Part shown: piece after piece, positions 40,733-62,476 of the stretch
How positions within the stretch are numbered: the first letter of the stretch is position 1
Layout: every line of letters begins with the position of its first letter
DNA from: an uncultured Gammaproteobacteria bacterium
GTDB lineage: Bacteria > Patescibacteriota > Patescibacteriia > Magasanikbacterales > JBBTQS01
Direction of reading: 5' to 3'
Length of the DNA: 64,000 bases
NCBI GenBank assembly: GCA_965230935.1
Contig: OZ246400.1
Location: 630,359-694,358 of the forward strand
Notes under the pieces: generated by a model
What the model saw: the letters and a program-made list of their open reading frames with translations, nothing else
Told to the model about the DNA's origin: nothing
Database searches by the model: none
Position numbers and translations under genes: made by a program

Positions 40733-41038
40733 TTATTCCATCCAACTTTCGTGCCCAATTAATACGTCTAAACGACTTCTTAAGTCTGCCAATTCTACTT
40801 CTTTTTCTGCAACACTTGTGTCAAATTCTTCTTTGGTCATACCTAAATCAACAGGATTATTTCTCTTATAAAAAGCCAAAAAATCTCTTAGTCGCAAATA
40901 CTCTTTTCTTTTTTCACTCATTTCTTCCTTAAGTCCTTTTTGTATTTCTCCAGACTCATTTCTATTTCTTGCCTTTTCAGACCATGCATCTACCCTTCCG
41001 CCTAAATCAGAATTAAAACCCTCTCTTTGTTCTAACAT
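40733..41038 (-). CDS. Hypothetical small protein.
   Basis: The track ORF extends to 41104 through AT-rich low-complexity codons. MLEQREGFNSD... is the more plausible start. No motif. Weak call. Confidence 0.3.
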   Translation of the reverse strand: MLEQREGFNSDLGGRVDAWSEKARNRNESGEIQKGLKEEMSEKRKEYLRLRDFLAFYKRNNPVDLGMTKEEFDTSVAEKEVELADLRSRLDVLIGHESWME

Positions 41039-41422
41039 ACTTTTGCTTACTCTATTTATCAATAGATTAGTTAGGTGTAGTTTATATAAAAATAACATAA
41101 GCATTTGTGAATGTAAACATCACCTCTCGACAGTTCTAAACATATTATCGTACCGTTGCAGGAGCAACAAGACTACATCCATCAAAGCTTTGTTAATCTG
41201 ATCGATAAATTCAAATCACTTACAAAATACTAAGTTTAGTAAAATTTCAATTTTCAAAATCAACTTTCACAACTTTTCCACATTTTGTGGACAGAAATTG
41301 CAAAACTGTGGATACATTTAGTATACACCAACAATTTTGTATAGACTTGTGTATACAAAAAATCGTAAGAATAGCGACTTTTTAAGCTTAATTTAAACAA
41401 AAAATAGCAAAATTTGCCGAAC

Positions 41423-41451
41423 TTGACAAAACCCTTTTTTTCGTGTATACT
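41423..41451 (+). promoter_or_regulatory. Consensus sigma70 promoter driving the non-coding unit upstream of dksA.
   Basis: TTGACA (41423-41428), a 17-nt spacer, TATACT (41446-41451). Confidence 0.5.
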
Positions 41452-41457
41452 AGTAAC

Positions 41458-41883
41458 AGTTCCTTAGAAAACCATTTCAAGTACGCATTAAAACGGGTGA
41501 CACCAAAAAAACATACGTGTCACAAGTCTTAAGAGCCGTGCTTCGATCGAATCATCCTCTTCCATTGCTACTGTTCTTAATTGCAAGGAAATCAAAATAA
41601 AACAAAGCGGGCGTAGTAGCTCCGCGAATAGCTCCGAGGTGCCCTATAGTCTTCCCTGTCTTGTGCAGGTCGAGGACGCGTGGATCACACCTTTCGAATG
41701 GTAGGAATGGCAAACAAACAGCCGATTGTGGGCTTGTTTGGACCGATGATGGTGGTCAGTGTACATCTTTGCGGTGTATAGCGATCACCATCATATGGAC
41801 CACGCTCACTCAACAGGCATCGGGGACTTACCTCCGGCCATCTATACACCTAGGGCGTCAGGACGTAAGTCCCTTGTTTTTTT
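41458..41883 (+). ncRNA. Candidate structured ncRNA or long regulatory leader (about 420 nt), family not identified.
   Basis: Bounded by the consensus promoter and a strong terminator (ggggacttacc ... ggacgtaagtccc then TTGTTTTTTT, 41822-41883). No ORF of 60 aa or more with an SD. Internal helices include gtgacac/gtgtcac (41507-41526) and a 9-bp stem gatgatggtg/caccatcat (41745-41796). It lacks RNase P, tmRNA and SRP RNA signature motifs. Confidence 0.35.
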
Positions 41884-41933
41884 ACTTCATTTTGCTATAC
41901 TTGCTACTGTATTTAGTATTTAGCTCCAATCAT

Positions 41934-42311
41934 ATGGCTGGACTCTCTAAAAAATTTGTTGAGGAGATGAAAGAGCAGCTTTTGGCTCAAAAAGAGAAAA
42001 TTGAAGGGGAATTGTCCCAATTTGCAACCCGCACTGGCGATAGTGATGATTTTAAATCTACATTTCCAGATTACGGAAACAAAGACGATGAAAATGCCGA
42101 AGAAGTCGCGACATACGAGACTAATCTTCGCCTTGAAGAAACACTGGAAAAAGAACTCCGTGATATTTCAAATTCGCTCAAAAAAATGGAGGATGGTACC
42201 TATGGCGTCTGCAAATATTGCAAAAAGCCCATCCCAGAAAATCGTCTACGCGCACGTCCAACATCGGGCTCTTGTGTTGAATGTAAAAAAACCTTGACCC
42301 AAGAACTCTAA
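41934..42311 (+). CDS. DksA/TraR-family C4 zinc-finger protein.
   Basis: 125 aa (MAGLSKKF...). Coiled-coil N-terminus. C-terminal CKYC...17 aa...CVEC zinc finger. The track ORF 41661-42311 includes the non-coding leader. Confidence 0.75.
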   Translation: MAGLSKKFVEEMKEQLLAQKEKIEGELSQFATRTGDSDDFKSTFPDYGNKDDENAEEVATYETNLRLEETLEKELRDISNSLKKMEDGTYGVCKYCKKPIPENRLRARPTSGSCVECKKTLTQEL

Positions 42312-42314
42312 AAT

Positions 42315-42761
42315 ATGCACCGACTATTGGGTAGCGGCATTGCTGCTCTTTTAGCGCTCATCATTGACCAAAGTATTAAATGGTTTGTTGCACAGCTCCC
42401 CAGCGGAACTGTGCTTTTGAGTTGGGGCCCAATTGGAATTGAATCACTCCACAACACAAACCTGTTTATCTGGATACCAGCCTCCCCAATAATTCTTGCT
42501 GCACTCTCTGGTTTTGTGTTAATTGTGGTCATTGTGTTGATGATGCGAGAAATAATCCACCGCCGATGTCTCTTTATTCCAGGACTCCTCCTTATTCTAT
42601 CCGGAGGAACCAGCAATAGCATTGATCGATTGCTCTATGGCACAACAATTGATTTTATTCGAATAGGCACCTTGATTGGAAACATTGCTGATATTGCGGT
42701 AGTCGCTGGTATTATCCTCATTGTTGTAGCACAACACCATCACCAAAAATCATCTGTATGA
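42315..42761 (+). CDS. lspA: Lipoprotein signal peptidase II.
   Basis: 148 aa, 4 TM. Conserved GGTSNSIDRLLYG and IGNIADIAVVAG regions (catalytic Asp pair). Confidence 0.8.
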   Translation: MHRLLGSGIAALLALIIDQSIKWFVAQLPSGTVLLSWGPIGIESLHNTNLFIWIPASPIILAALSGFVLIVVIVLMMREIIHRRCLFIPGLLLILSGGTSNSIDRLLYGTTIDFIRIGTLIGNIADIAVVAGIILIVVAQHHHQKSSV

Positions 42762-43975
42762 AAACCTACGCCTGTATACTTGGATCACACCCAGCAATCT
42801 CTGTTGCAGAAATCACCAAGGTAATCGCCCCCAATACCATAATCATTGCATCTGATTCGATCTGTCTTTTTGAGTCATCAAAACCTATTGATGCGCAAAC
42901 ATTACAAACCACGCTTGGTGGTACGATTAAGGTGGTTGAAATACTCCAAACACTCAATACAAAAAATGTTGCGGCATCTCATTTGACCAAAACCTATCTC
43001 CCATTTGCACATGATGGCAAAAATGTCATTGGGGTAAGTAGTTATGGACTTGATGCACCAGCGCTCACCCTTTCACAACGCACCACACTCACATTCAAAA
43101 AAGAATTAAAAGCTAAAGGATTTTCTGTGCGCATTGTTCAAGCAAAAGAACACGCACTTTCATCTGTTCAGGTGATCAAAAACGATCTTCTTCGCAAAGG
43201 AGCCGAACTCGTAGTGATTAGTTCTAAACGAGGAGTGTTGATTGGTAAAACACTTGCGGTACAGCATTTTGAAGCATATGCTGCGCGGGATTACGGAAGA
43301 CCGATTGCTGATGCACGATCTGGCATGCTTCCTCCAAAGTTAGCACGCATGATGATTAACCTTTCAGGAGCTAATGCAAAAAGTACACTCTTTGATCCGT
43401 TTTGTGGAACAGGAACCGTGCTTAGCGAAGCAATTGACTTAGGAGTACAAACAATTATTGGATCTGATATCAGCGCCAAAGCAATTACTGATGCACAAAC
43501 CAATATTGATTGGCTACTCGGCCAACCATGGAACACAAACAAAAAACCAAAGGTGAATATTTTTCAGCATGATGCAACACAGCCGCTTGCTGCAACACCA
43601 AAAATGGATGTTATTGTTGGGGAAACTTTTCTTGGCCCACCAAAACTTCCTACAGGAAAACAATATACCACGCTTAAAAAACAACTTACCTCACTATACG
43701 GCGATGCACTTGCACAATTAAAAACAATCAGTAAGCCTTCTACTAGAATTGTGCTCGCTATTCCTATGTTTCGTACTCGAGATGAAGGTTGGGATTTAGT
43801 TGACCTTGATTGGATACAAAAAAGTGGTTTTTCCTTAGAAAAACCACTTAACGAAACCCTTGTCCAGGATCTACGCGGGCACCTTAATGCCCGAGGAAAT
43901 TTGGTCTACGCCAGAGCTACTGCACGAGTGGGAAGAGAGCTTCTACTACTTGTGCAATCACAAACCCCACAATAG
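42758..43975 (+). CDS. THUMP-domain RNA (guanine-N2)-methyltransferase-like enzyme.
   Basis: 405 aa. N-terminal THUMP-like region. Class I SAM MTase motif I DPFCGTGTVLSEAI and motif IV-like VIVGETFLGPP. Confidence 0.65.
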   Translation: MKTYACILGSHPAISVAEITKVIAPNTIIIASDSICLFESSKPIDAQTLQTTLGGTIKVVEILQTLNTKNVAASHLTKTYLPFAHDGKNVIGVSSYGLDAPALTLSQRTTLTFKKELKAKGFSVRIVQAKEHALSSVQVIKNDLLRKGAELVVISSKRGVLIGKTLAVQHFEAYAARDYGRPIADARSGMLPPKLARMMINLSGANAKSTLFDPFCGTGTVLSEAIDLGVQTIIGSDISAKAITDAQTNIDWLLGQPWNTNKKPKVNIFQHDATQPLAATPKMDVIVGETFLGPPKLPTGKQYTTLKKQLTSLYGDALAQLKTISKPSTRIVLAIPMFRTRDEGWDLVDLDWIQKSGFSLEKPLNETLVQDLRGHLNARGNLVYARATARVGRELLLLVQSQTPQ

Positions 43976-45717: not shown

Positions 45718-46030
45718 AATACGCAACAATTACGAGTAGTCTGAAAAGTATACGCTATTTGTGCGCATCTGTAAAAGGGTGCTTTTTTGTAAAAATATTG
45801 TACGAAACTATTTTTTGTTTAAAGTAAAACATATTTCTTAATTTTCTATACAAATACGGCGCCTTCCTTCCATATGGAACAAAAAAGACAATCTAAAGAC
45901 TGCCCCACTCCAAGTGATTCTCCATTAAGCTGTTAAATTGTCCCACACTCCAAAATGAGACAGGTTCAAGAAGATATTAGATTATTATAATACAAAAAAC
46001 TAGTATTGTCAATTCAAAGCTGTGGAAAAC

Positions 46031-46075
46031 AAAATGTCTACACTATTGTAGACATTGCACAACACGTAGTGTTCT
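46031..46075 (-). terminator. Terminator of the 46082-46966 gene, with adjacent palindromes.
   Basis: 8-bp stem tgtctaca/tgtagaca (46035-46054). On the minus strand it is followed by TTTTGTTTT. A palindrome aacac-gta-gtgtt lies at 46061-46073. Confidence 0.45.
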
Positions 46076-58927: not shown

Positions 58928-60046
58928 TTATTGCCGGATCGGCATCACAATGTAGAGATACTCTTGTGAATCTTTTGGAGCAAATACCACTGGTGCTGTT
59001 GCATTAGTAATTTTAATTTGTGATTCTTTCGTATCAATTGCATTAAGTCCATCGAGTACATACCGATAATTCAACAACGTACTCCCTTCTTCACCAGAAA
59101 GCTCAGCAGTAAGAGTGGAAGCGTGTTCACCAAGTTGTGTGCTTGTAGACGAAATACCAATTGTTCCTTCGTCCACATTACAATCAAGCACCACTGCATT
59201 AATTCCTTGGCTTGCAAACAAACTTGCTGCTTTAATCTCCTGCACAAGCGCATCAGTTAAAAATATCGCTGATGTTTTATCTTCTTTTGGAATAATTTGC
59301 GTGTAGTCAGGATATTTCCCCTCAATTTTTCGACTCGTTATTGTCACATCACCCAAGACAAACACCACCTGTGCATCATCAAACAACATGGTGAGTTGCT
59401 CAGCCCCACCATGCACATGTAACACACGGGAAAGTTCAAATAAGGTTCGGTAGGGGATAATACTCTCAAACACTTCTGTGTTTGGTGACTCAGCTAATGG
59501 TACCACCACTTCAGCAAGCCGATAACTATCTGTTGCCGCCATAGTCAACATCCCTGGGGTTTTATTGAACTGGAAATACACACCGGAAAGCTCTGGTCGA
59601 ACCTCACTTCGTGAGCAGGCAAACAATACTCGTGTCAACGCTAATTTAAATTCTCCTGAAGTCAAATTAAACTGATACTTTGTCTCAATCTTTGGCACAA
59701 TAGGAAAATCTTCTGCTGAATTCCCTTTGATTCTTGTTTTACTTTTTCCAGCCTTAACCACAAGCTCATTATCCTCAAGTGACACTGTAACCGTATCACT
59801 TGAAACCAATTGAATATATTCAACAAGTGTTTTTGCCGGAACAGTAAACGAACCGTTTTCTTCGATCTTGGCCCGCACAGTTGTTTTGATTGCCATCTCA
59901 AGATTTGTGGTGGCGAGATTTACTGTTCCATCATCTGTGCTAATAAGCACATTGTTTAATATCGGCAAATGAATATTCTTTCCTGCTGCACCACTTACTT
60001 GTTGTAAGGCATGCATGAGATTTTCTTTGGTACATGTGAACAACAT
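58928..60046 (-). CDS. dnaN: DNA polymerase III beta sliding clamp.
   Basis: 372 aa, three-domain clamp (MLFTCTKENLMHALQQVSGAAG...). Its stop abuts the PBP stop with zero spacer. Confidence 0.9.
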   Translation of the reverse strand: MLFTCTKENLMHALQQVSGAAGKNIHLPILNNVLISTDDGTVNLATTNLEMAIKTTVRAKIEENGSFTVPAKTLVEYIQLVSSDTVTVSLEDNELVVKAGKSKTRIKGNSAEDFPIVPKIETKYQFNLTSGEFKLALTRVLFACSRSEVRPELSGVYFQFNKTPGMLTMAATDSYRLAEVVVPLAESPNTEVFESIIPYRTLFELSRVLHVHGGAEQLTMLFDDAQVVFVLGDVTITSRKIEGKYPDYTQIIPKEDKTSAIFLTDALVQEIKAASLFASQGINAVVLDCNVDEGTIGISSTSTQLGEHASTLTAELSGEEGSTLLNYRYVLDGLNAIDTKESQIKITNATAPVVFAPKDSQEYLYIVMPIRQ

Positions 60047-60322
60047 AGGCGCTATCTAATATTATATTTTTATTTTTTAATTATAGTTGTAGTAGTAGTG
60101 TCTGTGGATAGTGTGGAGAACGTACATTTTTGTTTTGTTTTTCTAGTAAAGTTTTGTGTTTTGTGTTTTTGAGTGGTGTGGGTGGATTGTGCGAAGATGT
60201 GTGCGAAGTGTGTGTGAAATTTTGTTTTTGATTTTTGGGTGTGGGTAGTCCTTTTCTTTTGTGTGTGTTTTGTGAATGTATTTTTGTATTTGTGCAAAGG
60301 CTACACACAGCATGTACGCAGG
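60047..60322. other. dnaA-dnaN intergenic origin-type region: AT-rich 35-bp block, a DnaA box, and a long GT-rich (plus) / CA-rich (minus) tract.
   Basis: AT-only block at 60055-60090. TGTGGATAG at 60103-60111 is an 8/9 match to the DnaA box TGTGGATAA. About 200 nt follow with almost no C on the plus strand (ttttgtgttttgtgtttttgagtggtgtgggtgg...). Confidence 0.5.
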
Positions 60323-61720
60323 TCATTCGTTCATTTTCGCTTTAAGTGTTTCAATTTCCTGTTTTAATTGAATATTGTCTTGGATTTTTGTACTGATTTT
60401 TGTGTGCGCATGCATTGCTGTTGTGTGATCCCGTCCCCCAATTGAGGTTCCAATCGCCGGGTAGGACAATTTAAGCTCCTCGCGCATTAAAAACATGGCA
60501 ATTTGTCGTGGAAAGGCAAGTCGCTTTTCTCGTGATGTACCTAATACCTCATCTTCAGTTATGCCGTAGAAATCCGCCACCATTATTACAACCTGCTTCG
60601 GTGTTTTTGGTTGACGTGCACCAGTAGTTTCAAGAGTGGAGACCAGGTTTTTGACGGTATCCATGCTTGGTGGGATATTTTTGAGCTCGTGATAGGCAAC
60701 AACTTTATTAAGCACTCCCTCAAGTTCACGGATGTTGTTGTGCGCAACACTTGCAATAAGAGTGAGGTGCTCTTTCGTAAGATTAAATCCTCGTGCTTGG
60801 CACTTGTATTCCAGAATTGCAATACGAGTTTCTAGGTCTGGAGCAGCAACATCAGCAATCATTCCCCACTCAAACCGTGACTTAAGACGATCTTCCAAAG
60901 AGGAGATAGCTTTTGGTGGTCTATCAGAGGATAAGATAATCTGTCGGTTTGATTGGTGAAGTTCATTAAAGGTGTGGAAAAATTCTTCTTGGGTACGTTC
61001 TTTACCAGCTAAAAATTGCACATCATCAATGATGAGCAAATCAACGTTTCGATATCGGTTTTTAAAGCTCTTGGCATCTCCGGTACGCACTGAGTTCAAA
61101 AAATCATTGGTGAATTTTTCACAAGATACATAGAGGAGGTTGTTGATACGTTTGGTGCGCAAAAGCTCAGCTCCGATAGCTTGCAAAAGGTGGGTTTTAC
61201 CCAGTCCTACGCCACCATAAATGAACAGTGGGTTATAGGCCACTCCGGGACGGGTTGCGACCGCCTGTGCCGCAGCGTAGGCAAGTTCATTGGTCTTACC
61301 AACAATAAAGGAGTCAAAGGTATATCGTGGATTAAGGCCAAATTCAGTGATACGCTGTGTTGGCGCGGTTACTGCAGCGACTTGTTCAGTGGCAGCTGGC
61401 GTCTCGGTTGTTTCTTCAGAAATTTTTTCTGGCTGTTCCGATTGCTCTGGCTGTTTTGGAATATGTTTAATTTGCTCTACCTTATAGATAATTTTTTGAA
61501 TAGGAGTACCAGAGACTTTTTCAAGTGTTTTCAAAATTTTGGCGTGGTATTTTTTTTCAAGCCAAGCTTTAGTAAAAGTATTGGGGACACACACAATGAC
61601 ATTTCCATTTTCAAAAATACCAATACCAGTATTGTGAAACCAGGTTGTAAAGTTAGCCTTGCTAAGATTGAGTTCAATCTCCGCGAGTACAGCTTCCCAA
61701 AGCTGTTGGTTGTTAAGCAT
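60323..61720 (-). CDS. dnaA: Chromosomal replication initiator DnaA.
   Basis: 465 aa. AAA+ Walker A GGVGLGKTHLLQAIG, Walker B LLIIDDVQF. C-terminal DNA-binding domain. Confidence 0.95.
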   Translation of the reverse strand: MLNNQQLWEAVLAEIELNLSKANFTTWFHNTGIGIFENGNVIVCVPNTFTKAWLEKKYHAKILKTLEKVSGTPIQKIIYKVEQIKHIPKQPEQSEQPEKISEETTETPAATEQVAAVTAPTQRITEFGLNPRYTFDSFIVGKTNELAYAAAQAVATRPGVAYNPLFIYGGVGLGKTHLLQAIGAELLRTKRINNLLYVSCEKFTNDFLNSVRTGDAKSFKNRYRNVDLLIIDDVQFLAGKERTQEEFFHTFNELHQSNRQIILSSDRPPKAISSLEDRLKSRFEWGMIADVAAPDLETRIAILEYKCQARGFNLTKEHLTLIASVAHNNIRELEGVLNKVVAYHELKNIPPSMDTVKNLVSTLETTGARQPKTPKQVVIMVADFYGITEDEVLGTSREKRLAFPRQIAMFLMREELKLSYPAIGTSIGGRDHTTAMHAHTKISTKIQDNIQLKQEIETLKAKMNE

Positions 61721-62131: not shown

Positions 62132-62476
62132 ATGTACCCAGCAAAGTATCGGCTTAAACACGACAAAGACATTGCCCGTGTGCTTAAAAGTGGGAAAAGC
62201 ACATCTGGTGTATTTTTGCGCTTAAAATACATAAAAAATAAGCTTGACCACCCAAGATTTGCTGTAGTGGTTGGTAAAAAAGTACATAAAAGTGCAGTTG
62301 AGAGGAATAAAAAAAAGCGTCAAATTAGGGAAATTATTAGAAAATCAATGATGAATCAAGGATTTTCTTTTGCTCGAGATGTTGTGGTAATTACGCAAAA
62401 GTCGATTATGGATAAGGATTTTCAGCAGATTAGTGATGAATTGTGTGGGTTATTAGGGGTTAATTCAAGGAAATAG
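62132..62476 (+). CDS. rnpA: Ribonuclease P protein component.
   Basis: 114 aa, basic. RLKHDKDIARVLKSG...FAVVVGKKVHKSAVERNKKKRQIRE is the RnpA pattern. Confidence 0.85.
   Translation: MYPAKYRLKHDKDIARVLKSGKSTSGVFLRLKYIKNKLDHPRFAVVVGKKVHKSAVERNKKKRQIREIIRKSMMNQGFSFARDVVVITQKSIMDKDFQQISDELCGLLGVNSRK

Follow-up and report, generated by a model that had tools for sequence, protein, structure and literature searches.

A probable gene for a structured RNA upstream of dksA in Magasanikbacteria and related Patescibacteria

Directly upstream of dksA, in a 64,000-nucleotide stretch of contig OZ246400.1 from a bacterium of the Magasanikbacterales (the whole stretch is called here the window, and positions are counted within it), there is probably a gene that stands on its own and encodes a stable, structured non-coding RNA (ncRNA) of about 426 nt. 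It runs on the forward strand from 41458 to 41883, that is, from a start site predicted at 41457-41459 to the end of a U-run, and it would represent an undescribed family that, as sampled, is found only in Magasanikbacteria, Uhrbacteria and related members of the Candidate Phyla Radiation (CPR, or Patescibacteria). We picture a near-consensus sigma-70 promoter that would launch a transcript opening with a conserved motif similar to boxA. The 5′ domain comprises hairpins P1 and P2, then a long-range helix, A/A′, enclosing variable inserts and a core of invariant architecture (P4-P4b-P5/P6); hairpin P7, a long hairpin, P8, and a two-tier terminator hairpin make up the 3′ domain, the RNA ending at its own intrinsic terminator. 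The molecule, which is probably abundant, would act in trans as a protein-binding housekeeping RNA of the ribonucleoprotein (RNP) type, possibly catalytic, and not as a sensor for dksA.

The spacer that houses this unit extends over 830 nt, between a hypothetical gene of the minus strand (40733-41104) and the ATG of dksA at 41934. The promoter, TTGACA-17-TATACT at 41423-41451, agrees with the consensus at 11 of its 12 positions and is invariant among the close relatives of the window. From about 41458 onwards the GC content is 47-53%, against some 28-30% in the flanking spacer, and the minimum free energy (MFE) of the transcript departs from that of shuffled sequence with a z-score of -3.6 over 433 nt and of -4.6 over the 3′ 296 nt. 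The longest open reading frames (ORFs) of the RNA strand have a median of 49 aa, as compared to 44 aa in shuffled sequence. A hairpin followed by a U-run (41822-41883) closes the unit, leaving a gap of 47-50 nt before the ATG of dksA; this gap contains weak promoter-like hexamers only, with no promoter at 9 or more of 12 matches. A simple terminator scan had overlooked the hairpin because its loop is 33 nt long. The original prediction, drawn from the letters of the sequence, had proposed this very promoter, the lack of a credible ORF and a terminator about 50 nt ahead of the dksA start: each was recovered, the ORFs being no longer than in shuffles and the U-run ending 50 nt before the ATG.

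Covariation across divergent relatives

The closest homologues of the DksA protein of the window belong to Candidatus Magasanikbacteria, then to Uhrbacteria, two lineages of the CPR. Our comparison was based on 80 species-representative genomes, all of them retrieved via DksA, and their loci are designated by L numbers. Contigs where DksA is 70-78% identical to that of the window display a homologous upstream region with the same promoter and terminator, and they share with it a block, TTCGATCGAATCATCCTCTTC, a hairpin, GAUGGUGG/CCACCAUC, and a CCUAGGG loop motif. More generally, in about 65 of the 80 genomes dksA is preceded, at 430-600 nt, by a near-consensus TTGACA-17-TATAAT promoter, together with a T-run at about -90 to -130, and the length of the RNA in the family is about 310-470 nt. 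What lies between promoter and T-run is very divergent. Comparison by blastn splits it into many small clusters, and nhmmer searches with the window RNA or with subfamily profiles retrieved the closest relatives only, leaving the clusters unlinked. Because searches based on sequence alone fail in this way, covariance models were needed to join the subfamilies. Scanning metagenomes with an invariant 20-mer, TCGATCGAMTCAYYCTCTTC, returned 45 loci, 43 of which were chance matches in unrelated GC-rich genes, while L110 and L127 were real.

Within the subfamily of the window, 11 members were aligned with MAFFT (alignment A4) and their common structure was predicted with RNAalifold. Among the 40 predicted pairs, 23 show compensatory double changes; 90.5% of the cells are paired, against 78.7% in shuffles, and the covariation score of 0.454 compares with 0.229 in shuffles (0 of 500 as high) and with at most 0.185 when the partner strand was slid. 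The helices supported in this way are P2/P2a, A/A′ (41562-41576 with 41696-41710) and P8 (41746-41794). Helix A/A′ (columns 126-142 with 283-295) has compensatory changes in 8 of its 12 pairs, with 93-94% of the cells paired, and P8 (columns 336-356 with 373-393) in 13 of 17. All 58 loci examined for it have the A/A′ duplex, whose centre, ACUG / YGGU, is conserved and whose flanks covary. Two further alignments, A3 and A5, were excluded from counting, since MAFFT mis-registers the P4 domain when distant members are mixed.

A distant subfamily of nine species, c1, has the layout of the window RNA written in a different sequence. A boxA-like end comes first, then a hairpin, a pyrimidine strand A and inserts with an A-rich linker; the core, GGUG-CUCCC-hairpin-GGGAG-CACC, precedes a purine strand A′, GUGGUAGAAGGG. 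Beyond this strand come hairpin P7, another hairpin that is long and variable, and last the terminator, which has an inner stem. A covariance model built from the c1 core only, R1, recognised ten loci outside c1 at E<0.01 and gave marginal matches at the expected place in the subfamily of the window (L140, for example, at E 0.015-0.03). Its single match in the window, 41624-41738, coincides with the predicted position of the core, at an E-value of about 1-2 in 64 kb. The rebuilt, second-round model, R2, places its sole window match at the same coordinates; at E<=0.1 it detects 50 of the 80 loci, to which weaker matches add six, with one stray match, and it newly brings in subfamilies c2 and c3. 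All R2 matches are on the dksA strand, upstream of dksA. In alignment A7 (32 sequences) 94% of the cells are paired, 17 of 20 pairs show double changes and covariation reaches 0.544 against 0.169 in shuffles; alignment A8 (65 sequences) gives 94.1% paired and 0.607 against 0.185. None of 500 shuffles scored as high, and sliding the partner strand gave at most 0.115. Both alignments were fitted to the model structure, so that the percentage paired is inflated and these figures lean high. The MAFFT-based A4 provides an independent check on them. The original prediction had proposed a comparative alignment of the orthologous intergenic regions as a test: these regions turned out to be conserved in position, with base pairs covarying across dozens of species.

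Whether the RNA is a gene in its own right can be judged from how these loci are connected with dksA. A promoter with at least 10 of 12 matches stands between the RNA terminator and dksA in 35 of the 53 RNA-bearing loci, and one with at least 9 of 12 in 47, the distance from terminator to ATG varying from 33 to 368 nt. DksA orthologues that have no RNA upstream exist as well (L011/L024 and L146/L147). Separate dksA promoters, the size and modular build of the RNA, its own promoter and terminator, and these RNA-less orthologues together argue for a separate gene, merely linked to dksA. The window is one of the few exceptions, with a short gap and no good promoter in it. As the gap there is 47 nt long, without a promoter of 9 or more matches, dksA may depend in part on read-through of the RNA terminator in this genome, and some read-through probably adds to the expression of dksA-lspA, as a by-product.

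On the same strand, dksA (41934-42311), which encodes a TraR/DksA zinc finger protein, is the first gene downstream of the RNA; lspA (42315-42761) and a methyltransferase gene (42758-43975) follow, and Pfam agrees with the identities that had been predicted for all three. Upstream of the RNA locus, Pfam identifies a histidine kinase and a response regulator in the window, whereas the relatives with DksA at 70-78% identity have pnp there; pnp is found upstream, on the same strand, in 23 of the 80 loci, within the 2.5 kb that were fetched. In the ancestral arrangement, pnp was probably followed by DnaA boxes, the RNA, dksA and lspA. Genes have been called inside the equivalent RNA region of L009 (93 aa, 2709-2990) and L013 (56 aa, 2790-2960); neither has a Pfam match, and both are probably artefacts of annotation caused by a GC-rich RNA gene. 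The covariance model allows annotators to label this region of about 400 nt, which is sometimes filled with such spurious ORFs.

In a further group of loci, subfamily c4 (L013, L047, L082 and L083), dksA is preceded by a promoter-terminator unit of matching size, which starts in a boxA-like manner and contains an A/A′-like helix, ACCGCUGUGCUGUAC / GUAUGGUAGAGCGGU. It is either a heavily altered form of the RNA or another RNA that has taken its place.

Fold of the RNA and its 5′ motif

The unconstrained MFE fold of the window RNA already contains most helices of the comparative model. It is multi-branched, with a single-stranded 5′ end and a 3′ end formed by the terminator hairpin. The three helices that the original prediction had singled out are all present: the 7-bp gtgacac/gtgtcac helix is P1 (41497-41503 / 41517-41523), aagag/ctctt is P2 (41531-35 / 41557-61) and gatgatggtg/caccatcat is the base of the 12-bp stem of P8 (41746-57 / 41783-94).

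The RNA opens, from +2 to +15 (41459-41472), with a motif, GUUCCUUAGAAAAC, predicted to be single-stranded, which is the sole match without mismatch to the pattern GTTCYTTNRAAAAC in the 64 kb. boxA is the NusB/NusE site of rRNA leaders, exemplified by GCUCUUUAACAA in the rrn operons of E. coli and by GUUCUUUGAAAAC in Bacillus. Of 70 family members, 40 have the form G[CT]TC[CT]TT within their first 60 nt, where 0.033 would be expected per 60 nt, and 63 have a looser form. The motif agrees with the core, GYTCTTT, of the gamma-proteobacterial boxA consensus, GYTCTTTAANA (PMC5725501); its 3′ half fits loosely and varies in the family (GAAAAC, CAACAA, ACACAA). As in rrn leaders and boxA of the suhB type, a GYUCYUU core stands at the extreme 5′ end of a long, untranslated and strongly promoted transcript; unlike in rrn leaders, no rRNA follows. 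By analogy, Nus factors would be loaded at the start of the RNA as they are on rRNA: the boxA-like element would recruit NusB/NusE and make transcription processive and resistant to Rho, perhaps also helping the RNA to fold, as in rRNA operons.

Hairpin P1, GUGACAC / GUGUCAC (41497-41523), belongs to the MFE fold; its sequence and length vary among relatives, which have hairpins at the equivalent position. In P2/P2a (41531-41561), which has covariation support in A4, AAGAG/CUCUU surrounds GUGCUUC-GAUC-GAAUCAU. It is overlapped by the 21-nt block shared with the closest relatives (41543-41563), which is invariant among them, and its UUC/GAA pairs become GUC/GAC in L068 and L127, a compensatory change. 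Strand A, CCAUUGCUACUGUUC (41562-41576), pairs with strand A′, GAAUGGUAGGAAUGG (41696-41710), at 14 of 15 positions, and strand A′ carries the family-wide motif (R)YGGU(R)G. Between the two strands lie an A-rich single-stranded linker, GGAAAUCAAAAUAAAACAAAG (41586-41606), of which a related motif, AAAACAAAAACAAAAG, recurs in other subfamilies; hairpin P3, GCGGG...CUCCGC (41607-41625), a variable insert restricted to the lineage of the window, L015 and L016; and the conserved core (41638-41691) that models R1 and R2 describe. This core is a three-tier hairpin in which P4 pairs GGUG with CACC, P4b pairs CC with GG and has an AUCA bulge on the 3′ side, P5 pairs GUCUUC with GAGGAC and P6 pairs CCUG with CAGG.

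Downstream of A′ comes P7 (41715-41740), a hairpin CAAACAGCC-GAUUGUG-GGCUUGUUUG followed by a conserved motif of the YUUGYC type, then P8 (41746-41794), a long hairpin supported by covariation in A4, whose 12-bp base is separated by an internal loop from a 6-bp tip. The outer stem of the terminator is formed by GGGGACUUAC and GUAAGUCCCU (41822-31 / 41865-74), after which UGUUUUUUU extends to 41883, the U-run itself occupying 41875-41883; an inner stem-loop, GCC...GGC, bears the loop motif ACCUAGGG. By inspection, a terminator of this two-tier kind, its outer stem rich in GC and its inner stem, CC/GGG, closing an A/U-rich loop, is found in many members. A covariance model of the terminator element, R3, proved to be a generic terminator detector, with matches to other terminators and on reverse strands, so that the alignment derived from it, A10, was left unused and the recurrence of the two tiers is documented by inspection alone. 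R3 also matches directly after dksA in L019, L023, L025, L043, L064 and L081 (about 2880-2940 of these loci), so a terminator or attenuator may often stand between dksA and lspA.

In subfamily c1 a pseudoknot between the loop of P7 and a strand just upstream of the terminator looks likely. Its candidate pairs are CCCA/UGGG, CUCUA/UGGAG in L033 and UUU/AAA in L055, in an alignment register too uneven for counting, and no equivalent was found in the subfamily of the window. A pairing of UUCCGACUU with GGUUGGGA, once considered for subfamily c3, was superseded by the family-wide helix A/A′.

The region upstream of the promoter

A cluster of DnaA boxes occupies 41274-41315 in the window, with TTTTCCACA at 41274-82 on the forward strand, GTATCCACA at 41307-15 on the reverse strand and a weaker box of the TGTCCACAA type at about 41284-92; each of these two or three boxes has one or more mismatches to TTATCCACA. 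Among the related loci, 72 of 73 have DnaA boxes in the 260 nt upstream of the promoter, 63 of them two or more, many being perfect. This amounts to 9.9 per kb, against a background of 0.30 per kb, a 33-fold enrichment. Closer to the promoter, at 41338-41357, there is a 20-bp palindrome, TGTATAGAC-TT-GTGTATACA, with one mismatch to TGTATACACNNGTGTATACA, where 0.01 would be expected by chance. The form TGTATACAC-NN-GTGTATACA, at three mismatches or fewer, is present in 46 of 73 upstream regions and in 0 control windows, and it is perfect in 14 loci. The palindrome was noted upstream of the RNA in L016, L021, L022, L029, L034, L038, L041, L043, L044 and L046, and also in L071, L080, L086 and L140. 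It looks like the operator of a dimeric regulator; a test against the parS pattern, TGTTNCACGTGAAACA, gave no significant match in the window. Conserved as they are, the boxes and the palindrome suggest that the promoter of the RNA is probably controlled by DnaA and by a dimeric regulator.

The origin region itself is located at 58.9-62.5 kb, with dnaN (58928-60046) and dnaA (60323-61720) on the reverse strand and rnpA (62132-62476) on the forward strand. At about 60.0 kb the GC skew, negative up to that point, becomes positive, and paired DnaA-like boxes occupy 60103-60120. A replication origin at the DnaA-box cluster next to the RNA was considered and rejected on the basis of this skew change and of the position of dnaA-dnaN. 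Situated about 19 kb from oriC and transcribed towards it, the RNA gene is therefore read head-on to replication.

A second module with a similar organisation lies on the reverse strand, at 45885-46056. A palindrome, TGTCTACA-CTAT-TGTAGACA (46035-54), and a DnaA-like box (46021-29) are followed by a perfect promoter, with 12 of 12 matches (46012-45984), about 95 nt devoid of ORF and a terminator hairpin with a T-run (45906-45885). The module precedes ychF, which has its own promoter. It has no match in Rfam, its fold z-score is only -0.24, and it may be a small non-coding transcript under the same control.

Nature and meaning of the RNA

At the gathering threshold, Rfam 15 recognises only five tRNAs in the 64 kb of the window, with no rRNA gene, and ARAGORN finds no tmRNA. 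At E<=10 nothing relevant was retrieved for the region of the RNA, even when the 446-nt RNA was scanned alone, a search size at which matches of about 10-18 bits are listed. The riboswitch aptamer classes gave no match at either threshold, nor did the covariance models of OLE, ROOL, GOLLD, raiA and HEARO, and the family was not found described in the literature searched. We conclude that it is absent from Rfam 15 and previously undescribed. The scan that the original prediction had proposed has thus assigned the RNA to no family and, combined with the strong covariation and with a near-consensus promoter and a terminator of its own, it bears out the conjecture of a new family; the diagnostic motifs of RNase P RNA, tmRNA, signal recognition particle (SRP) RNA and T-box leaders, said at the outset to be missing, are indeed missing. 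A T-box leader was discarded on the grounds that the best match to AGGGUGGNACCGCG has 5 mismatches in the window, and at least 4 across the family, with no match to the Rfam T-box model. Against tmRNA speak the negative results of ARAGORN and Rfam, a T-arm motif without conservation and a 3′ end that consists of a terminator hairpin. For 6S RNA, a rod of about 180 nt, there is no Rfam match either, and the RNA is multi-branched, with a single-stranded 5′ end and about 426 nt. SRP RNA has no model match at E<=10, and its defining features are lacking.

The most serious alternative among known families is RNase P RNA, in the form of an extremely divergent version of a universal RNA (tmRNA, 6S and SRP RNA being the other candidates), an idea that we hold to be very improbable. 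The size, within some 330-430 nt, the strong promoter, the long-range pairing in the core and the wide conservation would fit; the genome has rnpA, and no RNase P RNA was found in the 64 kb, a point of little weight since the whole genome measures about 930 kb. The RNase P RNAs of the CPR are, besides, known as aberrant and often fall below the Rfam thresholds (Lui et al., 2021; PMC8172020). However, none of the models of these four RNAs matches the 446-nt RNA at E<=10; those of RNase P RNA give nothing at E<=10 for the window RNA or for L076, each scanned alone, and nothing at E<=1 in six related loci. Its CR-I (GAGGAAAGUCC) and CR-V (ACAGAANNCGGCUUA) motifs are absent across the family, with at least 2 mismatches in 11 and at least 3 in 13, respectively, and neither a covarying long-range pairing of the CR-I/CR-V type nor a P4-type pseudoknot is seen. 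The 5′ and 3′ ends do not pair in the manner of P1, the former being a conserved single-stranded motif and the latter an integral, conserved terminator hairpin. Finally, about a quarter of the genomes sampled lack the RNA ahead of dksA.

The cis-acting leader put forward by the original prediction, an RNA that would sense a ligand, a protein or a tRNA and set the balance between stop at 41822-41883 and read-through into dksA, lspA and the methyltransferase gene, appears unlikely to us, if less so than a disguised RNase P RNA. The order of promoter, long structured RNA, intrinsic terminator and gene is that of riboswitch and T-box leaders; the RNA is always on the dksA strand and directly upstream, and the short gap without a promoter, which the window has and which L016, L031 and L092 approach by their own short gaps, speaks for this role. 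At the level of the family the attenuator is disfavoured: in most orthologous loci the gene is preceded by a second promoter, the distances from terminator to ATG reach 368 nt, some DksA orthologues manage without the RNA, and a modular molecule of about 310-470 nt with many independent domains is much larger than a known aptamer with its expression platform. It contains no aptamer or T-box motif, a boxA-type element would be unusual for a riboswitch, and no alternative pairing able to disrupt the terminator was apparent in the MFE or comparative structures, in which no systematic search for one was made. The other branch of the original prediction, an independent structured RNA, is the one that Rfam, covariation and the dedicated promoter and terminator uphold. 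More improbable than a leader is the proposal that the locus matters as DNA, titrating DnaA or controlling replication in the manner of datA, DARS or DnaA-box clusters, with transcription being relevant and its product not. The enrichment in DnaA boxes, the conserved palindrome, the proximity and orientation to the origin, the second module of palindrome, box and perfect promoter (45984-46056) and the retention of boxes without RNA in L011 would all suit it. A by-product would not, however, keep at least 40 covarying pairs, a core and a terminator architecture across very divergent sequences, and the GC skew switches at about 60.0 kb, not at the RNA locus; the two ideas are compatible in that DnaA may simply regulate a functional RNA. 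As for a small protein, the GTG-initiated ORF 'V(L/I)RSNHPL...', which starts within the invariant block and keeps its frame in the window, L015, L008, L140, L141 and L143-145, has almost nothing to recommend it as a gene. The similarity stops with the block, beyond which lengths (27-46 aa) and downstream sequences differ; a mere 2 nt separate the GTG from the putative Shine-Dalgarno sequence, AAGAG; the block forms the covarying helices P2/P2a; and other subfamilies do not have the ORF. It was rejected as a mere reflection of the nucleotide-invariant block.

Several points weigh against an independent, trans-acting RNA. In the window no promoter of 9 or more matches separates the terminator from dksA, so that the RNA may have an effect in cis. 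All related loci were fetched via DksA, and a linkage this tight may reflect a functional connection. Where the RNA starts and ends, and how abundant it is, are deduced from sequence, and its role in trans is argued from exclusion and analogy. The unity of the family is founded on covariance models, synteny and shared architecture, given that sequence-only profiles cannot connect the subfamilies; the alignments fitted to the model flatter the pairing, and R2 does not recognise subfamily c4 and some other promoter-terminator units. The resemblance to boxA spans 7-11 nt, and in several members the motif is in the loop of a short hairpin.

Keeping nevertheless to a stand-alone RNA gene, we find its closest parallels in kind, by analogy and without homology, in the raiA motif RNA, OLE, ROOL and GOLLD. 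These are large orphan structured ncRNAs with a promoter and a terminator of their own, and RNAs of this sort often adjoin a particular gene without regulating it, as the raiA RNA does beside raiA. The RNA described here is similarly a stand-alone gene, several hundred nt long, with several covarying helices and a restricted lineage. It differs from them in having no Rfam 15 match, in its phylum, CPR, in its boxA-like 5′ motif, in the DnaA-box cluster and palindrome upstream and, in many members, in the inner stem of the terminator. With 6S and Ms1, which bind RNA polymerase, it shares a housekeeping promoter; it would likewise be abundant and stable, and it adjoins dksA, the gene of a factor of the secondary channel of RNA polymerase. 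Unlike 6S, it is no rod with a central bubble, its ends do not pair and it is twice the size.

The CPR represent a large share of bacterial diversity, with tiny genomes in which very few ncRNAs have been described beyond the universal ones. That a folded RNA of about 400 nt was retained in at least 50 species, despite a near-total turnover of its sequence, implies an important role in genomes that shed what is dispensable. A boxA-like leader on a transcript other than rRNA would extend control by Nus factors to a stable ncRNA; the conserved DnaA-box cluster with an operator-like palindrome upstream of the promoter is a second unusual feature. One may speculate, with more doubt than confidence, that this is a CPR-specific housekeeping RNA of about 400 nt, made like rRNA, wired to DnaA and acting in trans on the transcription or translation machinery: a regulator that binds RNA polymerase or the ribosome alongside DksA, or a new ribozyme or RNP. 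If this were true, the unit at 45.9-46.06 kb would point to a regulon of non-coding RNAs controlled by DnaA and the palindrome. The RNA would in any event join the short list formed by OLE, ROOL, GOLLD and raiA, the study of which has repeatedly revealed new biology.

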